A stretch of 59,851 nucleotides of DNA, the filler included, from Catajapyx aquilonaris (lineage: Eukaryota), in assembly GCA_000934665.2 (NCBI GenBank). It is 3 parts of 3 records of this genome, joined end to end, with 100 filler letters (N's around TTAATTAATTAA, not from the genome) between each part and the next. Parts side by side here need not be neighbours in the genome. Positions count along the whole stretch, not along the records: positions 39,872 to 59,851 come from KZ539526.1; 2 more parts are not named here. One strand, given 5' to 3'. Made by a program: the position numbers and the translations under genes. The notes beneath the pieces were generated by a model. That model saw nothing but the letters and a program-made list of their open reading frames with translations. It searched no databases and was not told the origin of the DNA. Below, one piece after another: positions 19,839 through 59,851 of this stretch; the first letter of the stretch is position 1; every line of letters begins with the position of its first letter.

Positions 19839-19938
19839 NNNNNNNNNNNNNNNNNNNNNNNNNNNNNNNNNNNNNNNNNNNNTTAATTAATTAANNNNNN
19901 NNNNNNNNNNNNNNNNNNNNNNNNNNNNNNNNNNNNNN
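19839..19938. other. Assembly gap with artificial TTAATTAATTAA linker
   Basis: 44 N, then TTAATTAATTAA (stops in all frames), then 44 N. Confidence 0.97.
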
Positions 19939-39771: not shown

Positions 39772-39871
39772 NNNNNNNNNNNNNNNNNNNNNNNNNNNNN
39801 NNNNNNNNNNNNNNNTTAATTAATTAANNNNNNNNNNNNNNNNNNNNNNNNNNNNNNNNNNNNNNNNNNNN
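39772..39871. other. Assembly gap with artificial TTAATTAATTAA linker
   Basis: Same 100-nt structure as 19839-19938. Confidence 0.97.
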
Positions 39872-40764: not shown

Positions 40765-42893
40765 TTATTCGCTTTTCTTTTCAATTATTGTGTCTAAAAT
40801 GCGATTTATAGTTAGGCCCTGCTGGGCAATTGTCTGGAGAAACATTTCTGTAATTTTTTGCTCATGCTCTCTGGCAGCCTTCAACTCTTTCTTCTCCTCC
40901 TTATGTGTCTCTTGGACTGCTTCAATTTCATTCAGCAATCTTTCTGTGGTGGCACAACAATAGTTTGCATGTGTGTCATCAGTTCTTGTGCGCTTACGGG
41001 CAGAACTATCTTCTGCAGCTGGAGGAAGTAAATTTAAAAAAAACACACATGTTATTTGAATCGTGATACATATATGTACTGTATTATGAAAGATTTAATT
41101 GCGTAATGTATTTGAACTTGATATGGTCCCCATGCATGTTCAATACCAACCTAATTGTAATGAATTCCCAGAGAAAATGATGTACATGCCAAGTTGGTTA
41201 GAAGAGTGTATACAGTGGTATACAGTATTCTGACAAGTTAGTGACAACCACAAGGTCTGCGAAAGGAAGCAACATGTCTGTCTCCCACTGCAGGTGGAGA
41301 CAGACAAATTTTTATCTACATATTAATTGGCATAATTGAGACCAACCATGGTTTGTCTCAATAATGGCAATTAATGTACATATTTTTTAAGTGAAAACTT
41401 ACTGAATGTGTGAATCATAGAAAATGGTGCGATAAGATTACGCGAATCAACAAATGAAATATTTCCAAAAAGACCAGGAAAGAAATTGTACAGTCATGGA
41501 TAATTACCAAACAATTAGTCATGACATAATGTTTCAAAAAAAACCCTTCCTTTTCTGTGAGGAAGAGGCAAACATACAGGTTAGCCCTATCCCAAAGTAC
41601 AGTAATTACTCCCAAACTTCCATGTAGCGATGCAGGCCATCACATTGTGACTTCCTTGGCAGGAAGAAATAATTCAGTTATGTTAAATAAAGCTCAGATG
41701 TAATTCAAGCTGAATATATTGACTGGATTGATTGATATGTCAAAATCTTAATGGGTATCACTATAGTATCGGAGAGTTCAGTTACAAGGTCAAGTTAACC
41801 GTAGCTTTGGCACCTTCCCACTTACAATAAAAGTGTTCAAACCTTTGTCATTATTTGTGGATTCCTCATCACTACCTATCTCAGATAAGGAGTCTTGGGA
41901 CGGTCCAGCTTGGTTATCATGGCCTGAAATGATCGTTGTTAATACTCGTCGTATTATTGTTATCAACCATTTCGCTACCAGCTATAGGCCAAAACGTCAA
42001 TTTATATACGTACCTTTTTAGCCCTCCTTAATTATTGCTTTCTACACTTCATAGAAAAATGCGGCAAGTCCCCAAGTGTAAGTGGATCGTTTTGCAACAT
42101 TGTAAGTCAAATTTTACGCACACAGAAAAATGGCCGCGTCAGGTGACACGCTATGGTAGTCAGGTGACGATATCCAGTTTGACTCGGCAAGCAGAGTCAC
42201 AGTCAGTTCACTCTCCACACAAGTCGCCTGACACCTCAGGGGAGTCAAAGGACCACCCCTCCCCGAACTGCTCTGACTATCCTGGCGAGTCCACTGATGA
42301 CCCTGGGGAGTCCCTCGACCATCCTGGCGAGTCACAGGACACCCAAGAGGAGTCAAATCCTTTGACTCCCCTGAGGTGTCAGGCGACTTGTTTGGAGAGT
42401 GAACTGACTCTGCTTGGCGAGTCATGACTACTATAGCGTGTCACCTGACGCGGCCATTTTTCTGTGTGCGTAATTAGGATAGTTTAAAATCATACAATGT
42501 ACTAGGCTATAATTATTATGTAAGTTATGCGCATGGCAGAATTTTTTAAAATGAAAATCCAAATCTATTTATTCCAGAGCTACAAAAGTTGGAGATCGCA
42601 TGTATTGTTATTATCACAACTATAGTAATAATTGCTAATGTCACTGTAATTAATACATGCCGAGACGTACATATTATAATCTATTGAGCATACAAGTAGA
42701 ATTGAAATGCATCCAGCCAATGTTAGCAGATTGGAGTTATTTACACCAACAAGTGGCTTTTTTGCTCTATCACCTGGTAAAGTCCATTTAGTCTTAAAGA
42801 TTCGCAATGTTATATATGAAAGTGTGGAGTTCTGTCGGAAGAAACTTACCCCTCTTGTAATTCTGTGGTTGTGCTGATGGCCGATCCGGTGTT
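40765..42893 (-). CDS. Partial multi-exon gene of unknown function with an acidic linker and C-terminal coiled coil; candidate exons 42893-42850, 41923-41843, 41018-40765
   Basis: Polypyrimidine-AG acceptors and GT donors with compatible phases. Translation ..GHDNQAGPSQDSLSEIGSDEEST..SARKRTRT..ERLLNEIEAVQETHKEEKKELKAAREHEQKITEMFLQTIAQQ..KKSE*. AATAAA overlaps the stop. The 5' end was not found. Confidence 0.45.
42117..42470. mobile_element. Long-TIR MITE with CAC termini and internal GAGTC subrepeats (CACTA/EnSpm-like or TA-targeting MITE)
   Basis: Inverted arms of more than 100 bp starting CGCACACAGAAAAATGGCCGCGTCAGGTGACACGCTAT; flanked by TA. Internal approximately 21-bp CCTGGCGAGTC repeats. 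Confidence 0.85.
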
Positions 42894-43188
42894 CTGCAAG
42901 GTAGAATAAACATACCTGGAAGAAATGCCTAAAAATTCATGTCTTGCAGACTAGACTGCATAGGTTTTCCACAGTAGACATGCATCGATGCATGCAGGAT
43001 TTTTTAGTGGCAGATTTCACTGCACTTTGCCTACCATGATTGGAATTCATCCTGCCAGATTGCCCTTCGCTGACACTTGCACTGACAGTTTCTACACTCC
43101 CTGGGTCTGTAATGGAACCAATATAGCAGTTATAGCTTATTGAAAATGATCAAATGAGAAATTTTTAGAACATACTGTACATTCACAA

Positions 43189-45360: not shown

Positions 45361-46654
45361 GCGCCAGTCGTTCCCAGAGTGGGACCGTTGAAAGGCAAGA
45401 CGCAAGAGTCAACTCCAAAAAAAAGTCAAGAGATAAATCATCTTTAGATTAAAAGGGGAGACCAAAATGTCCAAAAATCCCACCCCCAAGCCTTTTTGTC
45501 CCTATCGCTTCTCTTTCCATCGAGGGCCGAATATGTCCCTTTTCTGGCTTATAGGACCGTTCCCCATCGTCCCCCGGACCCTCGGGTTTCTTTCTTTGTG
45601 TAAGGTACTTCTGTGTGTGGAGGGTCCCGAGAGAGCCCGGTTTTTCACCTGGCTAAATGGTTTTGCAATCCCTTCCATAAAAATCCGGCACTCTAGGCAA
45701 GGCCAGCTACTTGAACCCACATCTCAAACAATGCAAGTGGAGATTACACGGTTTCTGGTTTTAGTCACAACTTTTAAACATGAACAAATCACTATTATGA
45801 GTCGAAAAATCATATATCAGAATGATAAGAAACAAAGTTACAAAGGTTTTTCAGACTTTCTGGACTGAGAAAGAATATCCAGTGTATATCATACTACTTT
45901 CTACTCACTCAAGTACCGTGCTAACACAAGGCTTGACGAGACAGTCCATGCGATGCGATGGCATGGGTCAAGATAAATGGCCTCACCTGCCCCCCTGGGT
46001 GTAATAAGTTATTAAAGGTTACTCAAAAGGGGCCATAAACTTAAGTGACATGCACATGTGACACCACGTTGGTTACATCATGATATGTAGGGCTATTCCC
46101 TCCGGTCTTGTCGCAAAATTAATCATGCCAAAACGTAATACTACAATGCAATAGGTGGAAATAGAATACGTACAATTTCATATAGCATACTACGCATATA
46201 TTATGAAATGCAAGTTAACCTGTTACCATATACGTAAAAATAGTGAAGAGCTTTTCTTGCCTTTTCGTAGCTCACATTCCCTTTCATAGTTTCATGTCAA
46301 AGCTGCATTCCTCTCTATTATTCACATCACTCTACTCTATGAGGTAGTCATGATTCATGCTAAAGTGCAGTCTATGCTGACCAGTTCTCGGAAGTGAAGT
46401 TTAGTGTCCTCTTATGCTTTCGTGACAACACACAATTGTCCTCAATTGTTGAGAGCATTTACCCAGCGAGTGAATTTTCTTATCTCATTATTGTGTTGTG
46501 TCTGTCACATTTCTTGCGACCACAATCAATTGGAGACACACAAAGTGCGCCGAATGAAACACTCATAAACCACGACGCATAGATCTTTCTGACATTAAAA
46601 TAATTATAACCAGAGTTGAAGAGCAGTACTAAAGCTATACGAGCGTTGTTCAAG

Positions 46655-48580
46655 ATGTGGTCTTCTGCCGTACTGGTGCTACTATCGCATCTTTGGACAT
46701 GTTACGCAGCAGGTCAAGTGACTCGAACAGAGCTGGACAATGAAGACCTGCTGGTGTCTACCCTGCTGGCAAATCTTGTGATGACTAATGAACTTAGAGA
46801 GTGCTCTTTGGCTGTAGTGTGGAATTCGGATTGGATTGGTCATCACATACGAATGGCATTACTCCTGCAAGGTCATCTCTACCGTCCCATAGTACTGAGC
46901 AAGATGCCAAAGGACTACCACCATCCTTTGGACAAGTACAAGTGGCTGACCTCAAGAGACCAGCTGTACAACTTCAGAACCATGCCCCCTGACCTCAAGT
47001 CCCGTCTGTGGCCTGGAGGATCCTGCACCTTCCACTTCGTCATGGTAACCCACGCCTCACTCTTTTCGGACATAGTGCTTCACATGGTGGAATCAGTGCA
47101 CGTGAAGAACCTGGACTCCAGGTTCCTCTTCCATTTCCAAGAGGGAGATCCGGATCAGGTCATGTTGAGGTCACCTGCTGAAGGAATCAAGTTCAAGTTA
47201 GCAACAAAGGTCACTCCTGAAGGTCTGTCACTGTCCACTGTGTGTCTGTACTGCAATTCGGGTAAACCGGTCATCACGAGCCTTGGTCTGTACGAGAACA
47301 CCACACAAAACCTGTTCCCGGACACAGCACGGTTTATGAACGGCCATGAAGTGAATACTGTGTACATCTCAGACGTCGACATGGAGCAAGTTCGCAAAAC
47401 TGATCGTGAGTTTGGTGAAAACGCGAACTACATCACAACCCGGGGTTTTGCAGTCAACGAGCAGAAGCTTGGGCTGCGATTCACTGTACATGAGTTGCAG
47501 AATCTGGAAGAAGACTTTGAGCACAGATTGCCTAACGGGTCATGGAGTGGAATGGTTGGAGAAATCTTGACTGGTAAAGCGGACAACTCCGTGTTCACTG
47601 TGCTGACAGACGAATCGGCCAGGTTTGTTAGAGCCACGTTTCCGGTACTGTACATAACATTCAAGTTCGTTGCTAAGGCGCCTCGAGGTGTAATTCGATG
47701 GCAAATTATATACGAGCCATTCGAGCCCATGGTATGGTTAGCATTGACCGCTGGTGTGGCCCTATCAACCGTCGTTGTGTTTGTAATATTCCGGAGTCGG
47801 TATGCTTCATCGCCAGTGACATTCGTCAGGTCTGCCAGTTTCGCAGTACGAGCTTTGATAGAGCAGCCTGTGGATCTTCCGTCCTACCAAGTGTTTTACG
47901 CGTTTGCAGCATTTTACGCAATTTTTTATATCGTGATTGCTTGTGCGTACAGAGCCAAACTTGTGGGTTTCTTGTCCTATCCTAGAAAAGAGTTTGTGCC
48001 TTCCACGTTCGAAGAATTGGTCGATTCAGACTGGGATTACGGAGCGCCGCTAATTGAATACTTGGCACTCAGAAAAAACGCGGCTCTAGCCGGAAATTCA
48101 TTGTACATAAAATTGATGAAAAATGCTGAATTAGGCGGGGAAATTGAGCAATGTCTTGAATCGGTCATGTCTCGTAAAAAATTCGCTTGCATTTGCTCCG
48201 ACATCAGACTCGACATGGAGAAGGCCAAGTATGTGGACTTGGATGGCCACCTCAGAATACAAATATCGTCTGAGGGAATCATGAGCATGTTTCTTTCCCC
48301 GATATATGGCATGGGAGAGACATTTGCTCCAGCCAGCGAAGAACTGCAGAAGAGATATGTAGAAGCCGGAATTTTCAACCAATGGCTCATTGACGACGAA
48401 TTCAAAAGTTTTGCCAAGTATGTGCTGCCAAATTATAAGGGCGTATTGCAAGGGATGGTGGAGGAAATGGAGAATGATATATTTAGTATGGAGGAATTGT
48501 CAGCTCCGTTTTATTTGTTGATTTTTGGAATAACTATTTCCACAGTTGTGTTGGCAGTGGAAATGTTTTATTCTGCTTGA
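46655..48580 (+). CDS. Divergent ionotropic receptor (IR, variant iGluR chemoreceptor), intronless, copy 1
   Basis: First ATG at 46655 with a signal peptide. S1 LPNGSWSGMVGEI, IYEPFEPMVW-M1, pore ALIEQP, M3 CAYRAKLVGFLSYP, PSTFEELV, S2 RYVEAGIFNQW, MEELSAPFYLL-M4. Confidence 0.9.
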   Translation: MWSSAVLVLLSHLWTCYAAGQVTRTELDNEDLLVSTLLANLVMTNELRECSLAVVWNSDWIGHHIRMALLLQGHLYRPIVLSKMPKDYHHPLDKYKWLTSRDQLYNFRTMPPDLKSRLWPGGSCTFHFVMVTHASLFSDIVLHMVESVHVKNLDSRFLFHFQEGDPDQVMLRSPAEGIKFKLATKVTPEGLSLSTVCLYCNSGKPVITSLGLYENTTQNLFPDTARFMNGHEVNTVYISDVDMEQVRKTDREFGENANYITTRGFAVNEQKLGLRFTVHELQNLEEDFEHRLPNGSWSGMVGEILTGKADNSVFTVLTDESARFVRATFPVLYITFKFVAKAPRGVIRWQIIYEPFEPMVWLALTAGVALSTVVVFVIFRSRYASSPVTFVRSASFAVRALIEQPVDLPSYQVFYAFAAFYAIFYIVIACAYRAKLVGFLSYPRKEFVPSTFEELVDSDWDYGAPLIEYLALRKNAALAGNSLYIKLMKNAELGGEIEQCLESVMSRKKFACICSDIRLDMEKAKYVDLDGHLRIQISSEGIMSMFLSPIYGMGETFAPASEELQKRYVEAGIFNQWLIDDEFKSFAKYVLPNYKGVLQGMVEEMENDIFSMEELSAPFYLLIFGITISTVVLAVEMFYSA

Positions 48581-49602
48581 AAAGGGACTGATACAAATAA
48601 GCGAAATGTTACTGCCAAATCTTGGGACAGATTTCTGAGATAGGATACTCGAAAATATTGCTCCTTATTATGTAAAATATCCCTATACATAAAATGGTAT
48701 CCTGATTGTACTGCATTTTACTGTGTTTTTGCCATAATTACAGTATGTGTATATAAAACACTGCATTTATGTAGTATAAGTTTATGCGAAAAGCAGATAT
48801 GTTTTTAGAAATATTTCATACGGTAGGTAACTTTTATACGCGCATGATATCTTTCAGTGCCTGTATACGTACAGCAAATAAAGTAGTTATGATGATTACT
48901 TTGTATAATTTTTTGTTTCTTTCAATATAGGATTACAAGCAGTGATTGAGTGAGATTTATGCAGATGCGGAATTGTTTAATGGCGCAGACTACGATATTC
49001 TGCAAAAAAAAATCGTACATAATTACACCTGCAATCCCTACCTCGCAGCATCAAACAGAATTAATCATACTCTAATTTTCAGCTGCAAATATTTTTATCC
49101 CCTATGCAAAAGGAACAGGCTAAAATAATCATTGTATGTAGGGTAGTGTATACACTGCATAACCTCTTAATGGTCACAGCTCAATAATGTATAGAATATG
49201 GCGGGTGCTTTAACCGAGCCATGCAGGCCTTCGTTCATCGACCTCACACACCACGCAACGTGACTCTTACTTCTGCAGTTAATCAAGTTGATGGGTAGCC
49301 CGAGCTGATATCTTGTCTATAGAATAAAAAGAGGTCGACCTCTTGCACTTGATATCATTCTCTCTAAATTATTTATGTAGCACTATCCGAAAACCATGTT
49401 TGCCTTCCATTATTTACCAAACAATTTCATCTTTGTCATTTACTTCCATTTGAATAATGATGAGTCTGGTAAAAACACCTTTGATATATTTTTGTATGTA
49501 TAGAGAGTAGGCCACATACAAAACTTGAAGCGTGACAATTGGGTCCAATATATATGACAGGTTAGCATGCAATTCAGTTCTCTTCCTCAGTGAGTATTCG
49601 TT

Positions 49603-51540
49603 ATGGCAGGTGTGTGGTATTGTGCATCAGCAGCATTGTGTTTATGGATTTGTGCAGTGGGACAAGTGATTCTGTCAGTGGACAACGAGGACGTGCTTGT
49701 GTCTACTTTTGTAGCAAATCTTCTGCGGACCCCAGACCTACAGAAATGTTCGTTAACATTTCACTCAGATTCAGATCGCACTGGCAGCAAAACTCAAGAC
49801 ATGTTATCTGAACAAAGCTACCAGTACCGTCCTGCAGTACTGAGCAGGATGCCAAAGGACTACCACCATCCTTTGGACAAGTACAAGTGGCTGACCTCAA
49901 GAGACCAGCTGTACAACTTCAGAACCATGCCCCCTGACCTCAAGTCCCGTCTGTGGCCTGGAGGATCCTGCACCTTCCACTTCGTCATGGTAACCCACGC
50001 CTCACTCTTTTCGGACATAGTGCTTCACATGGTGGAGTCAGTGCACGTGAAGAACCTGGACTCCAGGTTCCTCTTCCATTTCCAAGAGGGAGATCCGGAT
50101 CAGGTCATGTTGAGGTCACCTGCTGACGGAATCAAGTTCAAGTTAGCAACAAAGGTCACTCCTGAAGGTCTGTCACTGTCCACTGTGTGTCTGTACTGCA
50201 ATTCGGGAAAACCAGTCATCATGAGTTTAGAAGCCAGTGATAATTTAAATGGTTTTTTTCCTGACACTGCAAAATTTATGAATGGTCACGTGGTAACATG
50301 GGTGTTTGTTTATGACATAAATATGGATGAGTCGCGTCGGATTTGGAAAGAGCATGGAGAAGCTGAGCTGCTCATTTTAGCTCGAGGATTTGTAGTCGGC
50401 GAGGACAAGCTGGGTGTAACTTACAAAGTGCATGATATTCTAGACCTGCAGCCAGACTTTGAGAACCGGCTTCCCAACGGGTCTTGGAATGGAATGGTCG
50501 GAGAAATCCTGACATACAAGGCGGATGCTGCAGTATTCACAGTCTTGACAGAAGAATCGTTCAAGTTCGTCAGAGCATCAGCCCCGATACTTTTCGTGAC
50601 ATTCAAATTTGTCACGAAAGTTCCACATGGTGTGATTCGTTGGCAAGTGATCTACGAACCTTTCGAAGTGTTTGTGTGGCTATCTGTAGCAATCAGTGTG
50701 ATCGCGTCGTCTGCAGCAGTGTATTTCATCTTTAGAGCCAGTTTTGTTAGCCCCATGTCATTCACAAGATCATTGTATTTCTCACTTCGTGCCCTTCTAG
50801 AGCAACCAATTACCATGCCATCACATAGAGCTTTCTATATGTTTGGAGCGTTTTATGCCATGTTTTGCATTGTCATGATTTGTGCCTACAAGTCTAAGCT
50901 TGTTGCCTTCTTGTCCTCGCCCAAAAAGGAATTTGTGCCATCCACGTTTGAAGAATTGATCAAGTCTGACTGGGACTGGGGGATACCTATCATAGAATAT
51001 TTCGGGCTAAAAAAATCATCCGAGCTGGCCAAAAACCCACTGTACACCAAAATGATGGAAAAGGCTGCACTAGGCAGTGATCTTCCACAATGTCTAGATG
51101 CAGTCATGTCCAGAAAAAAATTCTCGTGCATATGCGCTGATATCAGGCTGGAAATGGAGCAACCCAAGTACTTGAACTTGGATGGCCTTTTGAGAATTCA
51201 AATCTCGTCTGAGGGAATAATGAGCATGTTTCTCTCTCCAATATTTGGGTTTGGAGAGGTTTATGTTCATGCCATAGAATGGATGCATAGAAGCTTTGTC
51301 GAAGGTGGTATTTACCGTAAATGGCTATCAGATGACGAGTTTAAAAATTTCGCAAAGTATGTACTACCTAATACGAAATATTTACTGGAACAAATGGCGG
51401 TGCAAATGAACAATGATATATTGACGATGAAGGAATTGTCGGCTCCGTTTTATTTGTGGATATACGGAGTAACAACCGCTGTCTTGTTACTGGCTGGGGA
51501 GGTCATATACTTTTCTTGGAAGTACAATAGTAATCGATAA
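49603..51540 (+). CDS. Divergent ionotropic receptor (IR), intronless, copy 2 (tandem paralog)
   Basis: 645-aa ORF collinear with copy 1: LPNGSWNGMVGEI, IYEPFEVFVW, CAYKSKLVAFLSSP, PSTFEELI, FVEGGIYRKW, MKELSAPFYLW. Confidence 0.9.
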   Translation: MAGVWYCASAALCLWICAVGQVILSVDNEDVLVSTFVANLLRTPDLQKCSLTFHSDSDRTGSKTQDMLSEQSYQYRPAVLSRMPKDYHHPLDKYKWLTSRDQLYNFRTMPPDLKSRLWPGGSCTFHFVMVTHASLFSDIVLHMVESVHVKNLDSRFLFHFQEGDPDQVMLRSPADGIKFKLATKVTPEGLSLSTVCLYCNSGKPVIMSLEASDNLNGFFPDTAKFMNGHVVTWVFVYDINMDESRRIWKEHGEAELLILARGFVVGEDKLGVTYKVHDILDLQPDFENRLPNGSWNGMVGEILTYKADAAVFTVLTEESFKFVRASAPILFVTFKFVTKVPHGVIRWQVIYEPFEVFVWLSVAISVIASSAAVYFIFRASFVSPMSFTRSLYFSLRALLEQPITMPSHRAFYMFGAFYAMFCIVMICAYKSKLVAFLSSPKKEFVPSTFEELIKSDWDWGIPIIEYFGLKKSSELAKNPLYTKMMEKAALGSDLPQCLDAVMSRKKFSCICADIRLEMEQPKYLNLDGLLRIQISSEGIMSMFLSPIFGFGEVYVHAIEWMHRSFVEGGIYRKWLSDDEFKNFAKYVLPNTKYLLEQMAVQMNNDILTMKELSAPFYLWIYGVTTAVLLLAGEVIYFSWKYNSNR

Positions 51541-52917: not shown

Positions 52918-53246
52918 GGGAGCTGAATGACTTGCAGTGGATGGCTATTATCTGCTATTATGTAATGCAGGCTATGATGACATGGAAGGGAATCTACGGG
53001 TCATGTCTATACCTTCTTTTGCGCATGTTTAATTTTTCCAGAAAATTTTTAGATGCATTGTGGAAAGTTGAAGGAAATGCAAATAATCTTGCATCATATG
53101 CTAATTTTATTGATACCTTACAAATGATAAGTTATGGTTACAAAAGGTGCCCAAGACTTAGCTACATCTACATGTGGAAAGAGGCCATATCACAAAAAAA
53201 AAATTAAAATATTTTTTCTGTGTCTGTGTTTCAAAGTTTGGGCATA
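52918..53246 (+). repeat. Dispersed repeat, copy A (homologous to 59467-59851)
   Basis: Collinear shared blocks GGAGCTGAATGACTTGCAGTGGATGGCTATTAT, GGAAGGGAATCTA, TCTTGCATCATA..CTAATTTTATTGAT, AAGTTATGGTTA and AAGACTTAGCTA. Confidence 0.8.
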
Positions 53247-54838
53247 TTTACTCGTAAATACCAGGGACTAAAGTGACCATTGCAACTGAAGATAATGTCA
53301 GACACATTGTTCTGATAGTGGTTGAGACAGCCACACAGAATAAAAGCACCTATTGACATATATCATTCAGATATCAATGCAGACATCTGTAACATCACAC
53401 CACGAGTCATTACAGTCTCATGATGGTGTGATGCAGACAGTCACAGGAGTATACAGAGGCAGCCCAACTATTTATCGATTTAAAATAAGTACCGTTTCAC
53501 AATTTTATACCCATTTCATACCCATCTGGGATTCCCTAATAATGTTACCATTAGTAATGTCTGTGTCATATAGCAACCTGAAGATGGACGAAATCCAGAG
53601 TGGCAGAAGCAGGAGGCCAGCAGAACCTTAGCAGGAAGACAAAAAACTCACCCAAATATAGGGTAATCAATTTTGAGATGCTATTTTCAACGTCACCTAT
53701 TACAGGTACAGTACCAGCATTGCATTTTGATTCAGCGCAAGTTCCTTTTTGCAGTTACCTATCATGGGGAAATTACCTTTTGGACAATTCCATTACTGGT
53801 TGGTGTGCCTCATGAAGGTGATCTTACCTTCAGCTAAATTGTTTGTTGGTTGCACATACACTTACGAACACATCATACTGTGGTACGAGTTGTACATACA
53901 TTTACGAACCCATCACACTGTGGTCACAACCAATACGTACACCCATAACTTTCTACGTATATGTCAATGATTGGCTTCTGAATTATTTTTTCCAAAAAAA
54001 TTACAAAACATGATACTCGTAAGTGTCGATCCCAAAAGTTACGGAGTTACCTGTCACTGGATTCATGGATAGGTTAGGATCGGATATTCAGGCGGCGCAC
54101 CTGCTGGCCCAAATATCATTTCCTACCACCGGGTGTATACTCAGGTGGCGCTAGCCTGCTGCCCCAAGTATGACCCCCAGTCGGTTACCTATGCACCAAT
54201 GGACCCTATCTGAAATCACACACAAGTGCTCAATTCAAATCAGGGCCGACAAGTCAGTCAGTCGGTCGGTATCTATAGTCTCAGGGGGAGAGCACTCCGG
54301 AGAGGTCCTTCCCCTTTGACCTCTGCCAACTGACTGCCTGACCGAGCCGGCTGTCGCTTTATTTACACCTCGGTTTGTTTGTCAGCGTCGTGGGCAACAC
54401 GTGTTTCCAACTAACATCTCCATGGAGTTTGATACACAGCAACCGGAAACATGGTTACACCACTACAACAACCATACATTAAACAAGACAATCTTACCAA
54501 TTGGTAAGGAACATAATACAAAATCTACTAATGAAAAAGAGACATTACACAAGTTAGGTGTAGTAGGTGGCATTGTCATTAGTCAATCCAGTTGTCTATA
54601 TTTTATTTGGAATAAATTGACTGCACAACATTATGAACAAGTCAAAACAGTATTTCCTTTTTCTTCCATCCACAACCTTGACTGATAATAATCCACATGA
54701 ACTTTGTAAGTAACTTTAGACAATAAAATTATAACCACACCCAAATTGTAAATCTAACAGTAACCCTCGTCAGGACAATATATATGGGTGTCAGTCTGGG
54801 GCATGGAACCACTGAAAAGTTCTACCCCAACTTGCAGT

Positions 54839-57800
54839 TCATGTGTTTCCAGCATGTACTTTTGCATGAAAGGAGAGTGCAGTCAGGGTAGGAAACATCA
54901 GATTACATACTTTACAAGCAATAGGCTTGTCAGCCATGTGTGACATTTTGTGGGCTTGCAAATTAGTTCGAGAACAGTATGATTTGTCGCATATGTTGCA
55001 TGTAAATGACTTTTTACCTGAATGTATCCTCATATGTGCCATTAATGCAGAATGTTGCAAAAACACTTTGCCACACAATTCACAGATGGCTGTCTTCTTC
55101 TTGGTGTGCACTGTGGCATGCTCCAGCAATTGAGAAACACTTTGAAACATCTGTTTGCAGGTAGGGCAAGTCACAGTGTTTCCTGAAGATAAATTCGCAA
55201 GGGGGTCCTGAGTCTCTGTGGTACTAGTTGATGCAACCAGCACTATTTCCATCTCTTCTTCTCTAGGCATTGCTAATGAAGTCTTGGCTGGATTTGCGGT
55301 CTGCAAATAATAATAACAATGAAAGAATTTTGATGCATATAGTGTGGAGAAGAGTTGCTTACCTGCTCTGAACAAGTTGCTAATGCATGCACTGTTGAAA
55401 AGTTGTTTTTGTCAACTTGCCCCACCAGATCTTCTCCGCTATTTGTGGAATATTCATCAGAGCCATCCTCCAAATAGCTCATGGAATCATCTGGTTCTAT
55501 TTTACAGTTCACCTTATAAGGAAGATTTAAAAAAAAATTACTTCAGAAAGTTCTAACACCTGAAAGCTGCCTACATGAACAATTAGCAAAAAATAACCCC
55601 TGGATTGCAAACAAGTACATCATATATTACCATACATTGCATCCATTTCCATACTTTCCCTTCCCTGAATCGAAATGTTGATTTGATTTCTAAAAATGTT
55701 TGTGGCATACATAAATACGTAAGCAAGAGATGAAGTAAAAGTTAGAACACGAGAGGCATTACCATTTCTATTTCTGGCATCTCTAATTCTTCCTGGCCAG
55801 AAAGGCTTCCCCCAGACTCAATGTGTGGACCTTGTGGCACATCATCTATTGGGGAAGCTTCTGATGGAAATATTTCAGCATCTGACTTGTCATTTCCACT
55901 GGGAATACCTACAGTACACGAAATATTGTATGTTAAAAAAGTATTTACCACAAATTGGCATTCACTTACCAATGGTAGAATTATTCTTACTGGCTCCAGA
56001 AGTATCTTCTACCTCAGCAACACGTTTCTAAAAGTATACAAAGTATCAGTAATGATCCAGAATTTACAAAATTTTTGGATGATATCTCCACATAATACTT
56101 CTCACAAGTACATATTGCATCGAAGTTAACACCTAGGGAAAACAGATCAACGAACATTACTAGAGAACGGATTTCTAGCTTTTTACCTACTTTTCCTTCT
56201 GTAGGCAGAACACCGGAACCAAAATATCTATCCATTTTATAACACAAGGACCTCTAAAATTGTATTTTATAGTTAACCTATAATTGCCTATTTCGGGCAT
56301 TGGGGCCTAAGTGGCCTATTAGTGCCTATTTTCACCTTTTTGACGCCATTCCGTAAGATTTTCGAGAGTTTCGTGGAGAGGTCCGTTCAAGGAATCCTTC
56401 CCACTTTAACCCGTGATGGGTGAAGAAGCCATAGGCATGCCAGAGGAATTGACTGTCGATGACATTTCACTTTTCAAGTATATGATCCAGTTACTTCCTG
56501 TGACATCAAAATGTCATTTTCAGCAAATAAAGATGTATTTTCAGACACCAAATAATTGCCATTAATCAACGAAAATATGCAACAACTATTAGTTTGTTAC
56601 TGTGCTACAAAATTCCATGCCCAAGAGTATGCTGTAATGTTGCATAGGAATGAAAATAAATTAGGACCTGCTTGATTTTTAGTGCCTATTTAAGAGCCTA
56701 TTTTGACTGTTTTCAGGTCCTAAATGCCTACCTGTTTGAGGGTTTTTCAGAACCTAAAAATCCGTTCTTTAAACATTACCATATATTAAAGAATTGTGGC
56801 CAAAAATCTAACATATACCGTATTACCTCACATAAAGCGGCATGCCGGTGTAGCCGAGGTCGACAAGTTTTTAGAAATGCACGTTCTGGTGGCTATACCG
56901 GCATGCCGGTATAGGGCGAGGTATGTTGGTATAAGGTGAGGTTTTCATATGATACATTATCCTTTCTAAACTCGACATTTGCCTGAAAATCGAAATTCAC
57001 GTAAAGGCTATGGAAAAGGCACATTTTCCAAATAGGGTACCCGTACCATATATTGTTTTCAATTGCAGTGTTTGGCAATAATCTCTATTTAAACAATAGG
57101 TTAGAGCAGGGGGTTCCCCTGTCAAAGCAGGCTGACGATGGGATTGGTCATACGCTCTACATTTTTTAACGCACTGTGCAATAGAACTGACATATTCTCA
57201 CACCCTGTATACTCGCCCATTTTCATTGTAACATTATTTTAGTATGGTACCAGAAGCATTACAAAAAATTTGGCAAGGATCAAAATTACGGAAATCTACC
57301 TCGGTTATTGCATGCTGGCAACCCCTGGGTTATACCGGCATACTGGTCGACTTCGTTTTATATCGGCATGCCGCTTTATGTGAGGTAATACGGCAACATC
57401 TCTTTTGGCAAATTATTTTACATGTATAACATATATCATGATCTACTCTGACAGAGATGTAGCATAGTCATCATCACCTCTGGTTCATGTAATCATGGTA
57501 GATCTCATTTACTACTTCCTTTACGTTTCTTAGATTGAAAAACTAGATCTGCATGAGGTACAAAACCATATTTAGAGCCAGCATGTACAGTGTTGGACAT
57601 AAATCGAGGCATACTCCTAGCGACATTTTCCACAGCGGCAGAAGAAGGAATCTTGCTCGCCCAGCTTGTAAGTATGCTTATCTCCGATTCCTTCTTCTGC
57701 CGCTTCGGAAAATGTCGCTAGCCACCAATGCCTCGAATGCCTCGATTAATGTCCAACACTGTACTATAATGAACCTAGATCCCTTCCCTGTAGCACAATA

Positions 57801-58698
57801 CAGTAAAACTTCTATAAGTCGAATCTCCATGGGAGTTTATTTCCTGTTATTTTACATTGTGATTGTTGCATACTGGTGCAACCAAGCTCATAATTTACTT
57901 CAACTTAGGGAAGTTTGACTGTATTGTAACCCACTTTGCCTTGCAATGAACAGGATTTTGACATGTATAATTATGTTCTGATGCACAAAAGTTTCATCCA
58001 GCCAGTATATCTCAGAAACTGGATATCTCATCAGTATGCTTCACATGTTCCGGAGATATATGGTCCGGAGGGTTACCACATCACTCCGTTCCATAAGCAC
58101 CTTGCGGCCTTCAGGTGTGCGTGAGAACTTCAAACCCATGGAGAGCATGACCTGCCGCATAGACGTCCTGCCTCCTTTCCACCCTGTACTCCTCTGGAAG
58201 GCCTCTCGCAGGCGTTCAATAGTTGGTGGAGTGTTCTGCACCATCATGTCATGGTACAGTCTCCGCAACAAATCTTTGTCGAAACTGTCGGCCTGTGTGA
58301 CAGGACTCCCCCTCTTGTGGTGTTTACCTGTCAACAGGAATATTCATTATGTATTTATTACACGACATAGTACGGTTTCCACCTTTCGCAGTGGCAAGCG
58401 GCACCTACACACAGGGGCATGCATGCAGAACATGAGAAGCAAGTTTTATACCTGGGGTGGTAAAATTCGGCGCTTCCTTCGCTATCCTCGAGACCATGTA
58501 GTAATTTACACCCGTGGCATCAGCTGTCCTTTGAGTGGCTCTGGCAACGTCGCAGAGGGGCCCACCGGCCTCTTTCTCTCTCTTGAAGTATGTGTACACC
58601 CGATTGATCACTTCTCGGGTTTGGCCTGTCAAAATCCTCCTAGGGTTATCGCCTACCTCCTCAGAGGGACCCAACCCAAGTTTGCCGCTCTCCGACAT
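54839..58698 (-). CDS. Predicted transposase-derived DNA-binding domain fused to 4 C2H2 zinc fingers (about 437-446 aa); exons 58698-58452, 58327-58077 (or 58101), optional 56132-56106, 56027-55970, 55908-55763, 55512-55363, 55300-54839
   Basis: The last exon has four C2H2 fingers (CPTC..HATVH, CELC..HMRIH, CNIC..HKMSH, CKVC..HAKVH), preceded by acidic linker exons. The first two exons encode QTREVINRVYTYFKREK..ATQRTADATGVN..VSRIAKE and GLKFSR..RKVLMERSDV, typical of arthropod DDE_3/ITm transposase N-termini. All junctions are GT-AG and phase-compatible. The splice joining the two halves is inferred. Confidence 0.75.
56161..56771 (+). mobile_element. hAT internal-deletion derivative retaining a transposase C-terminal dimerisation remnant
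   Basis: TIRs TAGAGAACGGATTTCTAG / TAAAGAACGGATTTTTAG. 8-bp TSD AACATTAC at 56153-56160 and 56772-56779. GCCTA subterminal repeats. Remnant PVTSCDIKMSFSANKDVFSD..ENMQQLLVCYC at about 56486-56603. Confidence 0.88.
56818..57393. mobile_element. pogo-like MITE with CCGTA termini
   Basis: TIR CCGTATTACCTCACATAAAGCGGCATGCCG is perfectly inverted at both ends. TA on the left, CA (probably mutated TA) on the right. Confidence 0.85.
57588..57761. mobile_element. Tc1/mariner-type fold-back MITE
   Basis: TIRs CAGTGTTGGACAT..ATCGAGGCAT and an almost fully palindromic body. TA duplicated at 57586-57587 and 57762-57763. Confidence 0.9.
57801..57921. mobile_element. pogo/Tigger-like MITE (121 bp)
   Basis: TIRs CAGTAAAACTTCTATAAGTCGAA / CAGTCAAACTTCCCTAAGTTGAA; TA on both sides. 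Confidence 0.85.
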
Positions 58699-59466
58699 GG
58701 CAAGGTGCAGAAATCTGCTTCGAAATCACGTATTGACCGATCTACAAAGACGCAGTGAACGACGCCATCTGGAAAAGGTGCGTTCGGTTTGCTGGCACGA
58801 ATAACAGCGAGTCGGTGCATTCATGTGGCTGCGTTCAGCGCCACCTTTTAAATACAATCAAAGCCACTTTGCAGGTTGCAAAAATGATTAATTGCATGCA
58901 AAAAAAAAAACGGAGATTGAGTGCAGAAAAAAATGATGGTGCCGTGTCTGCCCGTATTGGGCGGGTTCCCCCCGGTGTCCCCCTCCCAGGCGCGATCCCA
59001 CTGCTGCCCAGCGCGGGCACGGTTGTTAGAGTATATCCTTCCTATGGTTGGACCGTCCGGCTAGTGGGCGGTGATTGGTGGANCTGGGGGCGGTGGGCTC
59101 CCCCTCCGCCCCCATGTTGGCGCGGGGCTCAGTGCGGACGCCCGGTCTGCGAGGGTCAGGCCGAGGAGATGGGGCCCCGCCCTCAGGGCATCCTCCGGCA
59201 CCGGCCTCCCAGTCGCGGGATCACAGGAGAAAGCCAACTCTCCCAGCCGATGGACAGGGCGCCAAATTGGGCTATTTATGCTGCCTTGCTCCAGGCCGAG
59301 GAGGAGGAAGGGCGGGGATAATTATGTAATATTGTCAGCATTACTTATGAACGACAATGAAAGAAAAACGAACATCTGTTGTCTTGGGTCGTACTTGGGA
59401 CTGTTGTGTTTCCGTGACATTGTATAAGCACAAAGTAGATACTTTTCATTGAATATATTGCTTCAT

Positions 59467-59851
59467 GGAGCTGAATGACTTGCAGTGGATGGCTATTATG
59501 TAGTGCTGTGCACGGCTGTGATGACAGGGAAGGGAATCTATGGGTAATAATGTCGATAACTTCTTTTGGACGTATCATTTTTGCAGCATTGATTGTAGAT
59601 GCAATTATTCACTGTGGACGGTGGAAGAAAATGCAAATAATGAGTCTTGCATCATACCCTAATTTTATTGATGTACCTCACAAGTCCCCCTCAAAAACCC
59701 ATAAGGGTTATCGCAGGGTATAAAAAATAAAAAATAAAAGTAAATAAATGATACCTTACAAGTTATGGTTATAAAAAGTGCCAAAGACTTAGCTATATCT
59801 ACTTGTGGAAAGGTAGGGATGTCTGTGTCTGTGTGTCAAAATTTGGTAATA
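59467..59851 (+). repeat. Dispersed repeat, copy B (homologous to 52918-53246), runs to the window end
   Basis: Same collinear blocks as copy A with an extra insertion around 59670-59750. Confidence 0.8.

Follow-up and report, generated by a model that had tools for sequence, protein, structure and literature searches.

A decayed Sailor-like transposase with an intact, spliced head and a cutting domain broken by two small inverted-repeat elements in Catajapyx aquilonaris

Introduction

The closest described relatives of the element treated here are the Sailor (DD82E) transposons, which in the sections of the survey by Shi et al. (2021; PMC8533490) drawn on here are common in invertebrates (206 species, 174 of them arthropods), make TATA duplications and have ends beginning GT or CC. 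We analyzed a transposase remnant on the minus strand of a stretch of 59,851 nucleotides from the Catajapyx aquilonaris assembly GCA_000934665.2 (the whole stretch is called the window below), in the part that comes from KZ539526.1. The locus is a real, neatly documented, ordinary transposon fossil. It is best explained as a transcription unit of the transposase head, with a dead cutting domain lying behind its stop codon and not in the intron of a fusion gene, and we give this explanation, whether the head is in use or not, a probability of about 0.7.

Set beside the motifs printed for Sailor in those sections (PMC8533490), the motif at the first catalytic aspartate of the remnant, ...IYWLDET, fits I/VVYLDET, and the relatives of the remnant have VIVMDNA, HC..NPIE and an 82-residue spacer, which fit likewise. 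The differences are that the second aspartate, the glutamate, terminal repeats and a TATA duplication were not found for the copy in the window, that this copy has a 124-nt intron whereas the genomic open reading frame (ORF) of the nearest relative has none, and that the copy is no longer a mobile element.

Two insertions within the remnant belong to a different class, that of the Stowaway-like, Tc1/mariner-mobilized miniature inverted-repeat transposable elements (MITEs), which they resemble in length (121 and 174 bp), in being non-coding, in ends beginning CAGT and in an exact TA duplication. Since the two MITEs use TA rather than the TATA of Sailor, they would have been moved by a different transposase.

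Transposase parts are also known from host genes. In the available portion of the KRABINER/SETMAR study (Cosby et al., bioRxiv 10.1101/2020.05.07.082677), DNA-binding domains are the predominant captured part (76.5%), and in 8 of 9 examined fusions the transposase ORF is reached by splicing of a host exon to an acceptor that lies upstream of it. As far as that portion describes them, such fusions would be like the present locus in retaining a transposase DNA-binding domain as spliced exons beside host regulatory exons; the locus would differ in that N-terminus and promoter would both come from the transposase head, and in that no joining contig was found in the public run described below (X1).

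Results

Exon 2 of the head (Table 1), read through its stop with the TGA taken as W, was the query of a HMMER search of 1.84 billion proteins, in which 337 reached E<=1e-3. For the best match, P0002 (430 aa, 62% identity, E 3.8e-41), the alignment begun in exon 2 continues unbroken over the stop as far as residue 193, and among the matches listed it was the only one above 50% identity. Counted from the table of matches, the best stretch extends past the catalytic aspartate (query position 110) in 127 of the 150 listed of these 337. Short proteins ending near the position of the TGA made up 23 of the 150 listed; these may represent genes for a head alone, ORFs cut by an intron or damaged copies, and they were not used as evidence. 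A profile was built from 27 full-length relatives, and with it a single domain begins in exon 2 and continues beyond the stop into the remnant, which makes exons 1 and 2 and the remnant one element, as an earlier sequence-only reading of this locus had supposed. The same reading had named the signature GKGxRxIIxHAG..GFV..DYHxEMN of a DDE_3 family, and this agrees with the family consensus and with the presence of Pfam DDE_3 in the relatives: the cut-off was passed by 8 of 10 full-length relatives, and the DDE_3 stretch of P0002 (178-371) spans the part to which the fossil aligns. The three fossil pieces scanned unjoined had no match with Pfam DDE_3 (PF13358, cut-off 28.6 bits), and Pfam scans of single exons gave nothing above cut-off. 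The catalytic columns of the relatives in the profile show D in 23/27, D in 23/27 and E in 22/27, with a second spacer of 81-84 residues in 25/27 and of exactly 82 in 15/27. To judge by sequence, the remnant is almost certainly a Sailor (DD82E) transposase of the IS630-Tc1-mariner group.

With tblastn, P0002 matched the window in three colinear pieces (residues 3-72, 68-192 and 219-234), and the profile of relatives, run over six frames of the whole window, found those three pieces and nothing else. The first is exon 1 (55.7% identity over residues 3-72; profile 8-70, i-E 6.4e-13), the second takes in exon 2 together with the read-through past its stop, and the third falls in fossil piece c, where 15 of 16 residues are identical (tblastn E 3.8e-5; profile 224-249, i-E 6.1e-6). 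Past the TGA at 58043-58041 the minus-strand frame of exon 2 continues as ...IYWLDETFVHQN, with the GAT codon of the first catalytic aspartate at 57998-57996, and all coordinates previously assigned to this stretch were verified. The motif of piece b agrees with the consensus of the relatives' alignment (A1), and the frameshifted YHDYMN that had been reported is present, being too short for significance alone. The catalytic domain had been described as restored; this holds for about 75 codons, but not for the rest of the domain, as P0002 residues 253-430 (tblastn) and profile positions 250-451 had no match in any of the six frames of the whole window. In the window the catalytic triad is represented by the first aspartate, and the second aspartate and the glutamate were not found. 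With this single catalytic residue and with profile positions 250-451 unmatched, the window carries a fragment of a Sailor member and not a complete member.

The structure model of P0002 (pLDDT 86) matches the transposase structures of Mos1, Sleeping Beauty and SETMAR, the lowest E being 4e-9. On this model exon 1 is the first three-helix module and exon 2 the second module, the hairpin and most of the linker helix (helices 86-134 and 153-171), the two exons together being the six-helix head, and the fossil covers strands beta-1 to beta-3 and goes as far as the point where the first helix of the catalytic core begins. Exons 1 and 2 joined as a head-only model are intact, with 177 codons and a stop. 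Exon 2 also has two candidate donors, GTG/GTAACC at 58076 (phase 0) and CAT/GTGAAG at 58044 (phase 2).

Splicing was followed in one public run (X1), which holds 0.30 of the sampled words of the stretch and which we took as RNA-derived because 7 of the 11 skipping joints on the third piece of the window have CT..AC ends (GT..AG on the minus strand). One X1 contig (record 5) spans 58104-58324 and 58449-58753 without a single differing letter, and its joint, which has CT..AC ends on the plus strand, is flanked by 221 letters on the shorter side. Both exons are therefore transcribed, with the 124-nt intron spliced out. In the contig of the nearest relative (L001) the genomic ORF, 283-1572, is uninterrupted and has no intron at the place of 58451-58328. 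The called ORF of L001 starts at GTG. Upstream of it, at 181-282, an ATG, AAG/GTAATT and a ...TTCCAG/ acceptor immediately ahead of the ORF could form a short first exon followed by a 5′ intron of about 70 nt; were this intron real, Sailor copies of the L001 lineage would carry introns, at another place. No X1 contig joins exon 2 to any downstream exon, 57922-58103 and the part from 55851 to the repeats being uncovered and hence uninformative on the end of exon 2 and the start of the zinc-finger gene that follows it.

It had been claimed from the sequence that removing two nested MITEs, each with one TA, restores the frame of the remnant. Scored with the profile of relatives, the sequence with both elements cut out and one TA removed with each gave an unbroken frame and a single domain at profile 82-249 (169.4 bits, E 4e-53), and the rebuilt peptide is significantly similar to transposase and shares its family with exons 1 and 2. 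The main domain scored 116.3 bits with the elements left in place, 118.5 bits with the elements out and both TAs kept, and 118.0 bits with the elements out and both TAs removed. The lead of 169.4 bits over the 116-118 bits of these three wrong treatments proves, to the base, where the elements begin and end and that TA was duplicated. Excision of the 121-bp element alone gave 131.3 bits (with one TA, a gain of 15 bits in profile match) and excision of the 174-bp element alone 117.2 + 39.1 bits. There are thus two insertions in the remnant, as claimed, but they are separate, neither lying inside the other.

Both elements have what characterizes Tc1/mariner-type MITEs, being short and non-coding with inverted ends, a TA duplication and many copies. 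No second copy of either was found within the 60-kb window; the highest X1 word depth is in the bin 57216-57881, and X1 contigs hold many MITE copies. Those with loose ends at 57797-57799 (5+2+5) are other copies, diverging at the border of the 121-bp element. The 174-bp element is self-complementary along its whole length, a near-perfect hairpin. It was considered as a microRNA and rejected, its Rfam matches to mir-5890 (33.1 bits, gathering 54) and mir-4667 (32.2, gathering 68) being read as an effect of the hairpin. Four insertions bounded by inverted repeats do lie between 58040 and 55909, as had been proposed, but the fourth is weak and the stretch that holds them is only putatively intronic. 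X1 word depth is high across the third insertion, indicating many copies, and several X1 contigs at 56191-56718, within the possible fourth, have variant letters and internal skips.

Table 1. Positions of the transposase head, fossil pieces, insertions and downstream gene in the window.
Feature	Position	Strand	Details
Exon 1, first helix-turn-helix module of Sailor head	58452..58698	-	ATG 58698-58696, then 82 codons + 1 base
Intron, 124 nt	58328..58451	-	GT..AG, phase 1; splits Gly codon of ...TTPG/KHH...; X1 joint 58324/58449 (cut +3)
Exon 2, second helix-turn-helix module, hairpin, linker helix	58041..58327	-	To TGA 58043-58041; profile 73-199 passes through
Fossil piece a, end of linker helix and strand beta-1, first catalytic Asp	57924..58040	-	Frame of exon 2; gapless against P0002 to residue 192
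MITE-type element, 121 bp	57801..57921	.	Inverted ends 29 nt, 86% complementary; TA at 57799-57800 and 57922-57923
Fossil piece b, 12 codons, GKG..R..II motif, strand beta-2	57764..57800	-	In frame only after both excisions
Hairpin-like MITE-type element, 174 bp	57588..57761	.	Outer inverted ends 28 nt, 96% complementary; inner arms 36 nt, 94%; TA at 57586-57587 and 57762-57763
Fossil piece c, AGSKYGFVPHADLVFQ..., strands beta-2/beta-3	57505..57587	-	In-frame TGA 57507-57505
YHDYMN, last recognisable transposase motif	57483..57500	-	One frame off; colinear with DYHDDMN of P0002
Third insertion, 576 bp, downstream of fossil	56818..57393	.	Inverted ends 35 nt, 94% complementary
Possible fourth element, about 611 bp, weak ends	56161..56771	.	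Inverted ends 21 nt, 86% complementary
C2H2 zinc-finger gene, four fingers	54839..55908	-	Exons 55908-55763, 55512-55363, 55300-54839; Pfam zf-C2H2 7.2e-16

Terminal inverted repeats of the parent element, which the sequence-only reading had suggested looking for upstream of 58698, were sought, and neither these nor a TATA duplication were found. Within L001 there were no inverted repeats of the kind expected of terminal repeats, none paired 58699-59851 with 53000-57480, and the flanks of L001 had no similarity to those of the window above shuffled controls (scores of 15 and 26, with control means of 17.4 and 24.5 respectively). Upstream of the head and on its strand is a signal recognition particle (SRP; 7SL) RNA gene at 58936-59247, which matches positions 1-299 of 299 of the metazoan model at 136.7 bits (gathering 70), with one N inside and a T run after it. 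As this gene ends at 58936, only 237 nt upstream of the ATG of the head are left for the 5′ end of the element. Direct copies of a dispersed repeat, about 90% identical, flank the locus at 59645-59846 and 53087-53241; an X1 contig joining these two was read as a third copy elsewhere.

The zinc-finger gene is on the strand of the head, its exons lying 2.1 kb downstream of exon 2. Its X1 joints are at 55510/55761 (cut +2) and 55300/55363, both with CT..AC ends, and according to X1 contigs the acidic exon runs from 55908 or less to 55763. Paralogues of the acidic exons, from which the usual first exon of the gene might have been learned, were sought in the window and none was found.

Other features of the window are less closely connected with the remnant. 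Stretches of N surrounding TTAATTAATTAA (about 19839-19938 and 39772-39871) mark three contigs joined by a linker with stops in all frames; features cannot be linked across these joined contigs, and the head and fossil lie in the third piece. Two tandem intronless ORFs on the plus strand (46610-48580 and 49594-51540; 656 and 648 codons) share 65% identity, and a block of about 120 residues is nearly the same in both, which may reflect gene conversion. With a weak match to Pfam Lig_chan in the second (32.6 bits), the pair looks ionotropic-receptor-like. At 42114-42473 there are two nested pairs of long inverted repeats (outer 49 nt, 98%; inner 55 nt, 96%), a foldback or nested MITE, which sits inside a spliced minus-strand gene with X1 joints at 41018-43035.

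Discussion

The features of this locus are consistent with a Sailor (DD82E) transposon that landed here and decayed in place. Its 5′ part remains as the intact 177-codon frame, transcribed and spliced, whose two helix-turn-helix modules and linker are the predicted DNA-binding head. Colinear behind the TGA at 58043-58041 comes the start of the RNase-H-like cutting domain, about 75 codons with the first catalytic aspartate among them. Two unrelated Tc1/mariner-type MITEs, each duplicating a TA, broke this domain, the further damage being one frameshift and the loss of everything past DYH..MN with the second aspartate and the glutamate. With its cutting domain broken and shortened, the copy can neither cut nor move. 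The head protein, if made, is predicted to bind Sailor ends or similar DNA. We infer that the transcript terminates without being spliced to the zinc-finger exons, and the same applies to any function of the head. The probability of about 0.7 attached to this anatomy is shared by two versions of it, in which the head is simply dead or is in use.

The first version, for which the chances seem somewhat short of even, is that of a plain dead transposon, with the intact head reflecting the luck of a recent death, an intron native to the lineage and leftover promoter activity. Between the fossil and L001 the differences at codon positions 1, 2 and 3 number 17, 7 and 32 over 58 codons, which is the pattern of past selection. 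The ratio of fossil to head identity is 1.16 and the median among intact family members is 1.13, which points to little neutral decay and a recent-looking death and makes the unbroken 528-nt head less remarkable. By both measures there is no excess of protein-level decay in the fossil. Tc1-like elements with spliceosomal introns have reportedly been published (10.1101/656579), which would also suit a plain dead copy, and the lack of any relative above 50% identity other than P0002 among the matches listed gives no sign of a conserved orthologue. Against plain death, 19 TA sites in the exons were spared as compared with 24 in the fossil, and the head has a GC content of 54% and 25 CpG in 528 nt where the fossil has 37% and 1 CpG in 225 nt, an ambiguous contrast because a milder drop occurs in the relative. 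GC at third codon positions (29% in the fossil, 61-65% in the exons) is similarly ambiguous as a sign of decay, the drop in the relative being milder over the same parts.

Several points weigh against the head-only transcription unit with a dead cutting domain behind it. In 783 nt of transposase-derived sequence the four lesions that are small or insertional, namely a stop, a frameshift and the two insertions, all lie beyond codon 177 and in the final third, with zero before it, which also speaks against plain death. By our own arithmetic the chance of this under uniform placement of lesions is about 0.33^4 = 0.01. Lesions confined in this way would fit selection on the head, hence a function, either stand-alone or fused. 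What is looked for in domestication was observed to the extent of an immobile locus, an intact head frame and expression, no relative exceeding 62% identity among the matches listed. Co-option of the head is possible; a stand-alone head-only gene in use seems doubtful. The kind of run that X1 represents is unrecorded, its RNA origin being taken from the GT..AG joints, and no 3′ end of the transcript was seen in it. Finally, the acidic exon at 55908-55763 is open from its acceptor and its first in-frame ATG is six codons before its end, a hint of coding exons upstream. A fusion path can also be drawn on paper: from 58077 through a mini-exon of 58 nt (56027-55970) or 37 nt (56027-55991) to 55908 the frame is open, for 437 or 430 codons.

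This path is the core of an alternative that we consider unlikely, a host-transposase fusion in which exons 1 and 2 (to 58077) open the zinc-finger gene, the fossil of the cutting domain is intronic together with the four insertions, and the product is a protein of head, acidic part and four fingers. The shared strand and the distance of 2.1 kb suit a fusion. So do the splice-site strings of the path, TTGTATACTTTTAG/AA and TTG/GTAAGT, and the fact that the frame of the mini-exon is closed by a TAG at the acceptor, which makes it coding only if entered in phase 0, as the donor at 58076 offers. However, a direct splice from 58076 (phase 0) or 58044 (phase 2) to 55908, which needs phase 1, is out of frame and meets a stop after 182-186 codons. 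X1 shows no joint between exon 2 and anything downstream, and a word-index search of 5.8 billion proteins found none containing exon 2 or the acidic exon. The donor GTAACC is also two conserved transposase codons (Val-Thr), and one mini-exon would be frame-compatible by chance about 1 time in 8, by our estimate. Moreover, a self-contained zinc-finger gene is equally open, with an ATG at 56120, the donor CTT/GTGAGA, a 78-nt intron and the mini-exon, for 276 or 269 codons; the introns of this own-start model (56106-56120, 55970-56027, minus strand), of 78 and 61 nt, are small like the confirmed intron of 62 nt at 55362-55301. The sequence alone cannot choose between the fusion and this self-contained gene.

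The sequence-only reading had placed the fossil in an intron and had drawn from it an order of insertion, exonisation, catalytic death and further insertions. Its identification of the element and of the two insertions was borne out, but it goes beyond the evidence in calling the stretch intronic, in proposing exonisation and in the order that it gives to the events. The most specific form of the fusion, capture in situ of the Sailor head as the promoter-bearing N-terminal module of a C2H2 gene, through the 58-nt mini-exon and in a 437-codon protein, seems to us quite improbable. If true, it would be a host-transposase fusion of the Sailor superfamily in an invertebrate, with the discarded catalytic domain still legible in an intron, and its orientation would be opposite to that of most vertebrate cases.

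As a head-only unit followed by its dead cutting domain, the locus is a clean worked example of transposon decay, in which the MITE borders and TA duplications are exact to the base and the family can be named, in all likelihood, as Sailor/DD82E. If the head is used, the locus keeps a DNA-binding module and the discarded half of its transposase side by side, and it would then be direct evidence that genes of the head-only or fusion kind originate through truncation at the site itself and not by retroposition or duplication.

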